A stretch of 39,769 bases of DNA from a virus (taxonomy: Duplodnaviria; Heunggongvirae; Uroviricota; Caudoviricetes), in the IMG/VR virus record IMGVR_UViG_2541047701_000005, positions 1 through 39,769 of that record; one strand, given 5' to 3'. The first letter of the stretch is position 1, and each line of letters begins with the position of its first letter. A program made the translations under genes and the position numbers. Shown piece by piece: positions 30,095 through 32,872 of this stretch. Under the pieces are notes generated by a model. The model made no database searches, had not been told where the DNA came from, and saw nothing but the letters and a program-made list of their open reading frames with translations.

Positions 30095-30295
30095 TTATGC
30101 AGTTGTTTTTTTGTTGCTTGGGAAGGGCTTTATTTCTTCCGCATAAACGCTTCCATCAGCGTTTATAGTTAAAAAAATCTTTCGGCCTGCATGAATGGCC
30201 TTGTTGATCGCGCTTTGATATACGCCGAGATCTTTAGCTGTCTTGGTTTGACCAAAGCGCATTGCATAATCTTTCAGGGTTATGCGTTGTTCCAT
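30095..30295 (-). CDS. cro: Cro repressor (lambda-type)
   Basis: 66 aa, [66 protein letters not shown] is essentially identical to lambda Cro. Confidence 0.95.
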
Positions 30296-30321
30296 ACAAC
30301 CTCCTTAGTGCATGCAATCAT

Positions 30322-30385
30322 TATCACCGCTAGAGGTAAAATAGTCAACACGCACGGTGTTAGATATTTATCCCTTGCGGTGATA
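30322..30385. promoter_or_regulatory. Right operator OR1-OR2-OR3 with PR/PRM (lambda-type)
   Basis: 17-bp sites TATCACCGCTAGAGGTA (30322-30338, cro-proximal), CAACACGCACGGTGTTA (30346-30362) and TATCCCTTGCGGTGATA (30369-30385, cI-proximal). The latter two match lambda OR2/OR3 as I recall them. Confidence 0.85.
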
Positions 30386-30395
30386 GATTTAACGT

Positions 30396-31109
30396 ATGAG
30401 CGCAAAAAAGAAACCGTTAACACAAGAGCAGCTTGAGGACGCACGTCGTCTTAAAGCTATTTATGAAAAAAAGAAAAATGAACTTGGCTTATCTCAGGAA
30501 TCTGTCGCAGACAAGATGGGGATGGGGCAGTCAGGTGTTGGAGCTTTATTTAATGGCGTCAATGCATTAAATGCTTATAACGCTGCATTGCTTGCAAAAA
30601 TTCTCAACGTTAGCGTTGAAGAATTTAGCCCTTCAATCGCCAGAGAAATCTACGAGATGTATGAAGCGGTTAGTATGCAGCCATCACTCAGAAGTGAGTA
30701 TGAGTACCCTGTTTTTTCTCATGTTCAGGCCGGGATGTTCTCGCCTGAGCTTAGAACCTTTACCAAAGGTGATGCGGAGAGATGGGTAAGCACAACCAAA
30801 AAAGCCAGTGATTCTGCATTCTGGCTTGAGGTTGAAGGCAACTCAATGACAGCTCCGGCAGGATCGAAACCAAGCTTTCCTGATGGAATGTTAATCTTGG
30901 TTGACCCTGAGCAACCTGTTGATCCTGGTGATTTCTGTATCGCTAGACTTGGTGGTGATGAATTCACATTCAAAAAACTGATCAAAGATAGTGGGCAAGT
31001 GTTTTTGCAACCACTTAACCCGCAGTTTCCAATCATCCCATGCAATGAGAACTGCAACATTGTAGGCAAGGTTATCGCCAGTCAATGGCCTGAAGAGACG
31101 TTTGGATAA
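30396..31109 (+). CDS. cI: CI repressor (lambda-type, HTH plus S24 autopeptidase domain)
   Basis: 237 aa, >90% identical by eye to lambda CI, including the Ala-Gly cleavage site, GNSM serine and FTFKKL lysine. Confidence 0.95.
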
Positions 31110-31116
31110 CACGTAA

Positions 31117-31554
31117 ATGATTAAAGAACGTATTTCTTATATCATTCCGATTGCGATGGATGAAGGCAACCCCGTAACTCCAGTTCTTATCTATGAAATG
31201 GATAAAGACTCCCATGAAGTGGATCTGTCATTTGGCGCTTTTTTTATCGGCCTTAAGGCTACAAAAAAATATTCCATAGGCATTGAGGTTTTCAATGCTC
31301 AAGAAATACCGATACCAATTGACACAAAACTGTACTCCAACCATAAGTTTTTTACGGTAGCAGAAGCCAACGATGGAGAAACCATCGTATCAACTTCTAT
31401 GAGAATTAACTTCCCAAGGGTGAAAATTATCAAGCCTGGGATATTCGAAGTTAGAGCATCACTGGTTAATCCTGAGAAAGGCGAAGTAATTGATGTAAAA
31501 AGTTCGTTTTTTGACGTGAAGATAACAGGATCAGTTCGCGATGAGTTTAGATAA
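31117..31554 (+). CDS. Hypothetical protein (145 aa) in the rexA position downstream of cI
   Basis: ORF starts 8 nt after the cI stop; AT-rich codon usage; no resemblance to RexA that I can recognise. Confidence 0.5.
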   Translation: MIKERISYIIPIAMDEGNPVTPVLIYEMDKDSHEVDLSFGAFFIGLKATKKYSIGIEVFNAQEIPIPIDTKLYSNHKFFTVAEANDGETIVSTSMRINFPRVKIIKPGIFEVRASLVNPEKGEVIDVKSSFFDVKITGSVRDEFR

Positions 31555-31660
31555 CAAGGTTGCTCAGCTTCGTCCAAATCAAAACATATCTCGCCCAATT
31601 GGACACTATTCCACTGATGATGCATACTCTCGGCATGGTGGAGGAAACGGCGGAGGTAAC

Positions 31661-31912
31661 ATGCTTGAGGCTAGAGTTGCAAAGCTAGAGTCTGATGTTG
31701 AATACATCAAGCGCGATCTCGCTGAGGTAAAATCAGATATAAAATCTGTTGATTCTCGTCTGTCAGGTATTGAGACAAGTATTAGCTCAGCAAAAACCAC
31801 CATTAAGGCATCTGCGGTCGTTGTCAGTTTCGTGTTCGCATTTTGCGCCTACATTTTTGGAAGTTATGTTTCCAAAATCCTTGATGCCTTAAACGGACTC
31901 GTTCTTAAGTAA
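31661..31912 (+). CDS. Small coiled-coil membrane protein (83 aa from the GGAGG-preceded ATG; 123 aa if started at 31541) in the rexB position, XhlA-like architecture
   Basis: MLEARVAKLESDVEYIKRDLAEVKSDIKSVDSRLSGIETSI is an amphipathic coiled coil, followed by a single C-terminal TM helix AVVVSFVFAFCAYIFGSYV; the RBS GGAGGT sits 4 nt upstream of ATG 31661. Confidence 0.45.
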   Translation: MLEARVAKLESDVEYIKRDLAEVKSDIKSVDSRLSGIETSISSAKTTIKASAVVVSFVFAFCAYIFGSYVSKILDALNGLVLK

Positions 31913-31918
31913 CACACA

Positions 31919-31945
31919 ACCCGGCCTCAGTGCCGGGTTTTCTTT
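31919..31945 (+). terminator. Intrinsic terminator ending the cI-cassette transcript
   Basis: ACCCGGC-CTCAGT-GCCGGGT hairpin followed by TTTCTTTG, directly after the stop codon at 31912. Confidence 0.65.
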
Positions 31946-32096
31946 GCCTCTCGATCCCCCTTCCCAACAACACATAACCATTTGTATTTATTGGAAAACT
32001 AATAGATACAACTTGCTAAACAGTGCAATTCTGATCCCTCACCTACCTAACAATTCACCCCTGCAAAAAATAAATCCATATAAAAAACATACAGAT

Positions 32097-32160
32097 AACC
32101 ATCTGCGGTGATAAATTATCTCTGGCGGTGTTGACACAAATACCACTAGCGGTGATACTA
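32097..32160 (+). promoter_or_regulatory. Left operator OL3-OL2-OL1 with PL (-35 TTGACA, -10 GATACT), lambda-type
   Basis: AACCATCTGCGGTGATA, TATCTCTGGCGGTGTTG and TACCACTAGCGGTGATA at about 32097-32157; PL hexamers overlap OL2/OL1; transcription is rightward toward N. Coordinates approximate. Confidence 0.8.
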
Positions 32161-32204
32161 AACACATCAGCAGGACGCTGGAAGCCAAACGGAACAGATT
32201 GGCA

Positions 32205-32239
32205 TGCTCTTTAACTTCGATGGGGCGCTGACAAAGCGC
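32205..32239 (+). promoter_or_regulatory. nutL: boxA (TGCTCTTTAA) and boxB (GCGCTGACAAAGCGC, P22-type)
   Basis: boxA-like sequence followed 10 nt later by a 5-bp stem / GACAA loop hairpin matching the P22 boxB as I recall it. Coordinates approximate. Confidence 0.6.
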
Positions 32240-32403
32240 AAACAGATACCAAACGAGATGGGTTTGGGATTTGATGAATGTGCAGGTCGATGCACTAACG
32301 CTTAGCGGTGAGCACCTGCCTTTGGGGCAGGATGGGTAGCCGCAATCAGGAGATCGACACCTGACATCAAATCACCAAAGCCATTTCACATGGAGAAAAG
32401 AAA

Positions 32404-32523
32404 ATGCTGGAAATTATCACCAACCCAATTCTCGGTGGGGCAATCATCACTTTCGCAATCGGAATCGGATTCACTATCTGGTCTGAAGTAGATGACTGGA
32501 TGTGGGAGCGCAAAAACAAATAA
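32404..32523 (+). CDS. Candidate small ORF (39 aa, single TM helix) in the PL leader between nutL and N
   Basis: ATG preceded by GGAGAAAAG; translation MLEIITNPILGGAIITFAIGIGFTIWSEVDDWMWERKNK; below the ORF-track size cutoff. Confidence 0.3.
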   Translation: MLEIITNPILGGAIITFAIGIGFTIWSEVDDWMWERKNK

Positions 32524-32563
32524 TCATCGACACACATTCATGTGTGTCTTCACGGAGGTCATC

Positions 32564-32872
32564 ATGGCGGTAATCGTGTACGGGAAATCAACATTCGCAG
32601 GAAATGCCAAAACTCGCCGTCATGAGCGGCGCAGAAAGCTGGCTATCGAGCGTGATGCCATCTGCAACATCATTGATTCTATCTTCGGCACAGACAGTGA
32701 GGAACCTGTTCAGAAAGGCACGAGAAAGCGTTTAAGCCTTTCTGAAAAAGCAATATCACTCGGCAACATTCGTAACCAAAATACCGACGAATGCAGTGGA
32801 AGTATTTGCCTGCCAAACGTAGCCATTTACGCGGCAGGCTACCGGAAATCAAAACAACTGACAGCGAGGTAA
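32564..32872 (+). CDS. N: Antiterminator N (P22 gene 24-type arginine-rich motif)
   Basis: Internal ATG 32564 with GGAGG RBS; GNAKTRRHERRRKLAIERD matches the P22 N boxB-binding arginine-rich motif; located downstream of PL/nutL. Confidence 0.8.
   Translation: MAVIVYGKSTFAGNAKTRRHERRRKLAIERDAICNIIDSIFGTDSEEPVQKGTRKRLSLSEKAISLGNIRNQNTDECSGSICLPNVAIYAAGYRKSKQLTAR

Follow-up and report, generated by a model that had tools for sequence, protein, structure and literature searches.

Control modules of lambdoid phages reportedly interchange by recombination at conserved flanks, as Botstein and Herskowitz are said to have found in 1974 with lambda immP22 hybrids made in the laboratory. The combination of lambda immunity with a non-lambda N antiterminator is already established in isolated phages: HK97, mEp234, HK106, and PhiR5_2 (AF069529, EF120460/61, PV340546) carry lambda-type cI, cro, and operators, including the CI alleles T3A and K71N, together with a non-lambda N and a boxB hairpin whose loop is GACAA. 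Here we describe the early-control region of a 39,769-nucleotide DNA stretch (IMG/VR record IMGVR_UViG_2541047701_000005, positions 1 to 39,769; the whole stretch is called the window below), in which a lambda-type repressor, Cro, and operators stand beside a P22-type N gene and nut sites. The closed chromosome of Escherichia coli MS15236, a human cerebrospinal fluid (CSF) isolate from Sweden, harbors a prophage 100% identical to the 39.8-kb window but for one IS100 insertion. We consider it very probable that this is a natural P22-like (CUS-3-type) temperate E. coli prophage with a lambda switch and a P22-type N, and that its early-control region was built by homologous recombination at short conserved islands.

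The described systems differ from the window in several respects. The lambda immP22 hybrids are laboratory constructs of the converse kind, with P22 immunity on a lambda chassis, whereas the window is natural and 3 to 16% diverged from both parents. The HK97/mEp234/HK106/PhiR5_2 group shares the final ∼20 N residues with the window, but its N has 127 amino acids and a different arginine-rich motif, beginning TRRTQFKGNSRSRRRERLKAKA, and its nutR boxB is unlike that of the window. Within this group, mEp234 also has the OR1 G-to-A change discussed below, a similar cII (86.9%), other genes in the rex slot, and a nutL boxB identical to those of P22 and the window.

Lambda-type immunity cassette

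Bounded by the cro stop codon on one side and OL/pL on the other, the cassette takes in OR, cI, and two genes in the rexAB slot, with P22-type nut sites directly outside both ends. Its lambda-type features are as follows.

30095-30295, minus strand: cro, of lambda specificity
30320-30385: OR, made up of OR1 at 30322-30338 (one mismatch to lambda), OR2 at 30346-30362, and OR3 at 30369-30385 (the latter two identical to lambda)
−35 at 30348-30343 and −10 at 30325-30320, minus strand: pR
30396-31109, plus strand: cI, of lambda specificity
31918-31947, plus strand: Timm-like intrinsic terminator, from the terminator scan, that ends the cI operon
32097-32159, plus strand: OL with pL, made up of OL3 at 32097-32113 and OL2 at 32117-32133 (both identical to lambda) and OL1 at 32141-32157 (one mismatch)
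−35 at 32131-32136 and −10 at 32154-32159, plus strand: pL, scoring 10/12 in the promoter scan

Cro is identical to lambda Cro at 65 of 66 residues (98.5%; V55I; Pfam Cro, E 2.5e-34), and CI to lambda CI at 225 of 237 (94.9%, local BLASTP). CI contains HTH_3 and Peptidase_S24 domains; by inspection, it retains the AG cleavage site, the serine of GNSM, and the lysine of FKKL. Its DNA-binding domain (residues 1 to 92) differs from that of lambda by only three changes, T3A, I55V, and K71N. Similarity to P22 C2 is confined to the C-terminal protease domain (47.7% over 128 amino acids), and the repressor, Cro, and operators of the window are unrelated to P22 c2/cro. The near-exact match to lambda that the original prediction claimed for Cro, CI, OR2, OR3, and OL is thus borne out, with OL1 one mismatch away. 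A repressor with the lambda DNA-binding domain, a lambda-type Cro, and tripartite OR and OL overlapping pR/pRM and pL, respectively, are sequence marks of the lambda immunity group, and all were found.

Likeness to the lambda immunity region extends to spacing, promoters, and the Timm-like terminator. The 100-nucleotide cI-cro spacer has three differences from lambda. The region's top σ70 matches are pL (32131-32159) and pR (30348-30320), placed as in lambda, and the Timm-like terminator, which lies within a lambda-like block (31918-32178), agrees in position with Timm as annotated in wild lambda-immune phages. The window differs from lambda in having two other genes in place of rexA/rexB, in the non-lambda type of its N, nutL, nutR, and cII, and in a 3′ third of cI that derives from a more diverged allele. 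A mismatch profile locates this last boundary inside cI: cro, OR, and the remainder of cI are ∼3% diverged from lambda, and the last ∼300 nucleotides of the gene (30795-31094) are ∼16% diverged from both lambda and HK97. Nine of the 12 CI changes fall in the C-terminal domain (T155A, A174P, E176D, R197K, Y211F, M213I, S219N, S221N, and V222I), some at positions that we take to be cooperativity-interface residues.

Could such a cassette have drifted to a new immunity specificity, heteroimmune to lambda? OR1 and OL1, located by searching with the six lambda operators, carry one identical G-to-A change next to the operator center; the N-terminal arm of CI, which contacts central operator bases, carries T3A (codon 30402-30404); and the DNA-binding domain also carries I55V. 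T3A and the OR1 change occur together in seven sequences (the window, E. coli FHI_NMBU_03 and NCCP 13717, and phages mEp332, CL707, HK244, and mEp234), and lambda and HK544 have neither. We nevertheless regard drift to heteroimmunity as improbable. T3A, K71N, and the OR1 change are all found in mEp234, CL707, HK244, and mEp332, whose GenBank records call these sequences immunity regions and describe their CI/Cro operators as lambda-type; these four phages were reportedly collected as lambda-immunity phages by Degnan et al. in 2007. There is no strict covariation, because OL1 does not track T3A consistently and is unchanged in several T3A phages, and four of the six operators, like Cro, are essentially unchanged.

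We also considered T3A and the OR1 change as a compensatory pair and set this idea aside. Because OL1 breaks the pattern in several phages, and a mere ∼60 bp separates the two sites, linkage is the likelier and simpler explanation of their co-occurrence.

P22-type N and nut sites

30053-30087, minus strand: nutR, with boxA CGCTCTTTA at 30079-30087 and boxB ACCGCCGACAACGCGGT at 30053-30069
32205-32239, plus strand: nutL, with boxA TGCTCTTTAAC at 32205-32215 and boxB GCGCTGACAAAGCGC at 32225-32239
32404-32523, plus strand: 39-amino-acid open reading frame (ORF) MLEIITNPILGGAIITFAIGIGFTIWSEVDDWMWERKNK, hydrophobic with one transmembrane segment (phrog_7482)
32564-32872, plus strand: N, P22 gene-24 type

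The N start is 32564, as in RefSeq; 32492 is merely the start of the ORF. N is 66% identical to P22 gp24 (E 5e-45; Pfam N_peptide, E 1e-39) and does not match lambda N significantly (E 0.19). The arginine-rich motif GNAKTRRHERRRKLAIER lies at the N terminus, as expected of a P22-type N, and residues 8 to 31, with GNAKTRRHERRRKLAIERD, are exactly those of gp24; outside the conserved part, the two proteins are only ∼50% identical. Both boxB sequences are letter for letter those of P22 nutL and nutR, and both fold into hairpins, that of nutL consisting of 5 bp and a GACAA loop. A pattern of boxA, spacer, and GACAA hairpin has exactly two matches in the window, 30056-30086 on the minus strand and 32206-32237 on the plus strand; none is expected by chance (100 shuffles). 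One site follows pL on the plus strand and the other follows cro on the minus strand. The assignment of the arginine-rich motif and both GACAA loops to the P22 type, made in the original prediction, therefore holds, and module-by-module searches showed neither the cI/cro region to be other than lambda-like nor N or the nut sites to be lambda-type.

Likeness to P22 gene 24, nutL, and nutR thus covers the arginine-rich motif, both boxB sequences, the boxA type, and the positions after pL and cro; the difference is the 39-amino-acid ORF between the N leader and N. This ORF is inserted exactly at the ancestral N start and occupies the ancestral N ribosome-binding site; N has a new ribosome-binding site 40 nucleotides downstream. 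The ORF is missing at this position in P22 and in the FHI_NMBU_03 prophage. When 32060-32700 (OL, nutL, and the start of N) was used as a query, at least 16 further genome records matched from the OL end through the N end. Among the matches listed in this E. coli genome search, the extra segment before N was covered only by the window's own genome and one other, ETEC4085, which covers most of it (84% of the query at 98% identity) without the lambda OL end. A RefSeq "tRNA-OTHER" mark underlies related N-leader matches in two other strains. Across the whole window, Rfam at gathering thresholds gave no matches, and ARAGORN found no tRNA or transfer-messenger RNA.

Recombination junctions

BLASTN against lambda gave blocks at 30081-31105 (92.9%) and 31918-32178 (90.4%), and against P22 at 30051-30100, 32165-32267, and 32561-32689. 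The lambda-like and P22-like blocks overlap, and we placed the crossovers with five-way alignments, the original prediction having proposed alignment to lambda and P22. The left crossover falls inside the invariant CATCAGCAGGACGC (32165-32178, plus strand), at the beginning of the pL transcript, with lambda-like sequence upstream and P22-like sequence downstream. The right crossover falls inside the nutR boxA, directly after the cro stop codon. Both are thereby narrowed to conserved islands of 9 to 14 nucleotides. Sequence identities, site positions, these junctions, and their recurrence in other genomes are direct observations.

Recurrence of the hybrid core

A full lambda-type cro-OR-cI block is carried by 36 phage records, among them lambda, HK97, HK106, mEp234, mEp332, HK244, HK542, HK544, CL707, SfI, ev099, ev243, PhiR5_2, and a few lambda isolates; judged by name or record size, none of the 36 is P22-like. 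Among the lambda-immune phages whose N and nut sites we examined, mEp332, CL707, HK244, and HK544 are lambda-type, and HK97, mEp234, and PhiR5_2 are HK97-type, with a GACAA-loop boxB. No published P22-like phage with lambda immunity came up in a literature search, although one may have been described.

Bacterial chromosomes gave a different picture. E. coli UMNK88, FHI_NMBU_03, and strain 10 (NC_017641, NZ_CP019455, NZ_CP146507) harbor P22-like prophages with the CI (WP_001274764.1) and the 102-amino-acid P22-type N of the window. Their coat, portal, gp4, gp10, needle, and ejection genes all belong to the P22 family. UMNK88 and FHI_NMBU_03 share the Cro accession of the window, strain 10 has a Cro with like annotation, and the nut sites are as in the window in FHI_NMBU_03, where they were checked. 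These prophages differ from the window in their integration, Q, lysis, and replication modules; they lack the 39-amino-acid ORF before N and IS100; and they are found at three different attachment sites, among them the dsdC/argW-side site with a torI-type excisionase and a site adjacent to ybhC. In the strain 10 prophage, the excisionase and integrase genes lie next to ybhC, presumably on the flank of the lambda attB; in that case, this would be a short-tailed phage combining lambda immunity with integration at the lambda site. The three isolates come from Norway (FHI_NMBU_03), from ground beef in the USA (strain 10), and from a porcine source in the USA (UMNK88). A further strain, NCCP 13717, has lambda immunity with an HK97-type N on a P22-like chassis.

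These genomes also bear on whether the hybrid is an artefact, whether of chimeric assembly, a laboratory lambda/P22 hybrid, or a contaminating cloning vector. Lambda cI, pL, and pR fragments are frequent vector parts, and lambda contaminates databases (one "Campylobacter phage" record is essentially lambda). We give this explanation practically no credence, since the lambda-like block is ∼3 to 7% diverged from laboratory lambda at the nucleotide level; T3A, K71N, and the OR1 change are natural alleles of wild phages; the whole 38 kb is uninterrupted and 100% identical within the closed MS15236 chromosome; and independent Norwegian and US strains have these junctions too.

As far as these sequences tell, the core is a recurrent cassette in E. 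coli P22-like prophages rather than a one-off, and a product of ordinary lambdoid modular exchange. The expectation that such mosaics occur among lambdoid phages fits its recurrence in independent prophages, and the suggestion that the pairing is noteworthy finds no support: lambda immunity with a non-lambda N and a GACAA boxB is known from HK97, mEp234, HK106, and PhiR5_2, and P22-like prophages of three or more further complete E. coli genomes carry the same core.

Establishment and integration functions

29689-29988, minus strand: cII, lysogeny activator (Pfam Phage_CII, E 6e-35)
29966-29998, plus strand: putative pRE, with a CII box (TTGC-N6-TTGT) at 29966-29979, followed after 13 nucleotides by TACTAT and reading toward cI
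33518-33688: cIII homologue, 56 amino acids, diverged (phrog_550, E 1e-22)
38500-38718, plus strand: xis
38696-39769, plus strand: int, HK022 allele of the lambda Int family, ending at the final base of the window

CII is of the HK97/mEp234 allele, neither lambda nor P22 (86.9% identical to mEp234 CII and 41.6% to lambda CII). The CII box overlaps the cII start codon, its spacing to TACTAT is that of lambda, and the geometry matches the pRE/CII site annotated in wild lambda-immune phages; we infer that box and hexamer together form pRE. RefSeq gives the cIII homologue no more specific name than hypothetical protein. The interval from N to the recombination genes showed neither a sieB nor a ral homologue. 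A 40-nucleotide stretch there (33261-33300) is 100% identical to the lambda region upstream of sieB, and 39 of its nucleotides match P22 exactly.

The description of Int and Xis as lambda-type in the original prediction is right for Xis, which is 95.8% identical to lambda and 97.2% to HK022, and misses the allele of Int, whose identity to HK022 is 97.5%, as against 75.5% to lambda. HK022 attB lies between torS and torT (PMC6814406). Sequence beyond int in MS15236 equals HK022 attP up to CACCTAAAG, after which the torS side of the chromosome begins. Because Int is the HK022 allele and the attP match extends to CACCTAAAG beside torS, the predicted integration specificity is that of HK022, not lambda; neither a near-identical lambda Int nor a prophage at attB-lambda, between gal and bio, was found. 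The window thus resembles HK022 in Int, Xis, the attP arm to the core, and location beside torS, and differs from it in that HK022 is a siphovirus with Nun in place of N and another immunity. Prophages at the torS site have been reported to replace the torS promoter, altering oxygen regulation of torCAD (PMC6814406). The MS15236 prophage lies directly upstream of torS, which is annotated as frameshifted in that strain.

Rex-slot genes and a second immunity region

31117-31554, plus strand: orf145, in the rexA slot of the cI operon
31541-31912, plus strand: orf123, in the rexB slot (phrog_6136)
2580-2801, minus strand: 73-amino-acid ORF
2801-3613, minus strand: second antirepressor-like protein (PHROG anti-repressor family, E 3e-102)
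3614-4345, minus strand: Ant (Pfam Bro-N and P22_AR_C; PHROG anti-repressor Ant, E 6e-66)
4314-4487, minus strand: ribbon-helix-helix (RHH)-like protein, 57 amino acids, with a weak ParD-like RHH match below cutoff
4587-5228, plus strand: repressor, 213 amino acids (HTH_3 and S24-like Peptidase_S24), oriented divergently from the rest

Neither rex-slot gene has a Pfam match above cutoff. The orf145 product gives a confident beta-sandwich model whose structural neighbors are only generic, and its homologues are confined to enterobacteria. The orf123 product combines a coiled coil with one C-terminal transmembrane segment and has a weak XhlA match under the Pfam cutoff. The pair also lies downstream of cI in FHI_NMBU_03, NCCP 13717, and strain 10; UMNK88 has a gene for a Clp-fold serine protease in the slot instead. 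A PADLOC search of these genes and those of the region described next gave nothing convincing: orf123 had a CorA-like match (E 0.005), and the 213-amino-acid repressor had helix-turn-helix (HTH) matches only.

The original prediction did not mention a second, immI-like immunity region (an "ant moron"; 2580-5228), which lies between gene 16 and the tailspike gene, the location of P22 immI. An ant gene is present there, as in P22; the RHH repressors of ant in P22, Mnt and Arc, are not, and the divergent repressor is an HTH plus S24-like protein rather than Mnt. Organization also differs from both relatives: P22 immI is mnt-arc-ant, and the CUS-3 ant moron consists of ant and two mnt-like genes, without the S24-type repressor, RHH protein, and two antirepressors of the window. 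The ant-moron region is highly variable among P22-like phages (PMC2629481). Aligned to the C-terminal domain of lambda CI, the 213-amino-acid repressor has alanine in place of the catalytic serine (GEAM versus GNSM) and retains the lysine position; because of the serine replacement, it is probably a noncleavable maintenance repressor.

P22 Ant inactivates repressors of several lambdoid phages. Since the antirepressor genes stand under a separate repressor, lambda immunity, which the original prediction named as the phenotype, is only half of what would be expected: a lysogen is predicted to be immune to lambda, an infecting phage may overcome lambda immunity, and immunity may thus be nonreciprocal. 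Taken jointly, orf145 and orf123 could be a candidate exclusion or abortive-infection pair, expressed from the prophage by cotranscription with cI, and the second control region one arm of a bipartite immunity acting on lambda-type CI; we offer this joint reading as a tentative one that we somewhat doubt. If the bipartite part is right, the phage would be able to infect lambda lysogens productively and induce them, and lysogens of the phage itself would remain immune to lambda.

Late control, lysis, and virion genes

1-2175, minus strand: tailspike gene, followed on the same strand by ejection, head-completion, coat, scaffold, portal, and terminase genes to ∼21400
17620-19572: complete IS100 (IS21 family), with istA at 18465-19487, istB at 17686-18468, and inverted repeats at 17620-17647 and 19546-19573
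22634-23746, minus strand: lysis genes
24257-24775, minus strand: Q, phage-21 type

Beyond Q, the order is nin and replication genes, cII, cro, cI (plus strand), N, recombination and accessory genes, xis, and int. Q matches PDB 6P18/6JNX (E ∼1e-91, residues 1 to 162) and Pfam PF06530, which we take to be the Q21 family, distinct from Q82; it has no match to lambda Q or P22 gp23. The endolysin is of the phage 21 R21 signal-anchor-release lysozyme type (PDB 3HDE, E 6e-106), the holin is an HP1-family class II protein with a weak match to phage 21 S, and Rz is 95% identical to P22 gp15. Of the proposed 21/82-type origin for Q and lysis, the phage 21 part therefore stands for Q and the endolysin; the Q82 family is not supported, PDB and Pfam matches for Q being only Q21/PF06530 and DUF1133, and the holin and Rz are HP1-family and P22-like, respectively.

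The virion genes were compared by tblastn against P22 and CUS-3, by nucleotide matches to CUS-3, Sf6, and HK620, and through the RefSeq annotation of the identical prophage. They form a full, syntenic P22-like set: TerS, TerL, portal, scaffold, P22-fold coat, gp4, gp10, needle, gp14, the gp7/20/16 ejection proteins, and a tailspike whose N-terminal head-binding domain is conserved. The P22/Sf6-like assignment was thus correct and can be narrowed to the CUS-3 type (94 to 99%). Identities to CUS-3 (CP000711), a P22-like E. coli podovirus, are 94.5% for coat, 98.3% for scaffold, 97.2% for portal, 98.5% for TerL, 98.6% for TerS, 99.3% for gp4, and 99.2% for gp10; the two phages are unlike in their ejection proteins, in the needle tip, and in the receptor domain of the tailspike. 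The coat protein is only 28% identical to that of P22.

IS100 interrupts the final codons of the large-terminase gene, a short way before portal begins, with a target duplication of ∼6 bp. It is 100% identical to copies on E. coli plasmids, one of them from a human CSF isolate (also the isolation source of MS15236). The MS15236 prophage, 100% identical elsewhere, lacks the element, which makes the insertion very recent. The early-left region of that same prophage has a gene annotated as a DUF551 pseudogene. Together, the IS100 insertion and the pseudogene would suit a decaying remnant in which the regulatory core is a fossil without working immunity or antitermination, an account that we find highly improbable. 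The regulatory genes (cII, cro, cI, N, Q, the cIII homologue, xis, and int) are all full length; operators, promoters, and nut sites are intact; and the virion, lysis, and replication gene sets are complete. The insertion is, moreover, very recent, and even a virion-defective prophage would still confer repressor immunity.

Predicted regulatory circuit

Having favored a natural prophage with a lambda switch and a P22-type N, we can outline how it would work; every binding, antitermination, and immunity phenotype given here is predicted from homology. In the lysogen, CI dimers would bind cooperatively to OR1/OR2 and OL1/OL2, shutting off pR and pL and activating pRM, as in lambda. The switch would flip upon RecA-stimulated CI self-cleavage or when Cro occupies OR3. 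The pL and pR transcripts would then bear boxA and the GACAA boxB; the arginine-rich motif of N would bind boxB and, with host Nus factors, make the polymerase resistant to termination. Leftward read-through would reach the recombination and cIII genes, and rightward read-through would reach cII, the O-type and DnaC-like replication genes, the nin genes, and Q, whose phage-21-type antiterminator would in turn allow expression of the phage-21-type lysis set and the P22-like virion genes. Lysogeny would be set up by HK97-type CII at the pRE overlapping the cII start, aided by the cIII homologue, and the HK022-type Int would insert the genome between torS and torT. The lysogen's immunity should hold against lambda and wild lambda-immune phages but not against phages of P22 immunity.

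Four points weigh against this picture. The first base of the nutL boxA is T rather than C. The I55V change in the DNA-binding domain of CI was found in none of the wild lambda-immune phages examined. With its C-terminal third diverged by nine substitutions, CI could differ quantitatively in cooperative binding or looping. Finally, the prophage copy bearing IS100 may be crippled for virion production even with a working switch.

Implications for lambdoid phages

As a clean, well-resolved case of the modular exchange that defines lambdoid phages, the core adds little beyond bookkeeping; its potential for discovery lies only in the rex-slot pair and the atypical antirepressor control region. The pairing is in no deposited phage genome of the collection searched, yet it is in several closed E. 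coli chromosomes. Lambda immunity specificity therefore circulates in nature on a short-tailed P22-like chassis as well as in siphoviruses, which is of use in predicting superinfection immunity, or in choosing indicator strains, from genome sequence. Where an antirepressor region is present, as here, immunity is not readable from immC alone.

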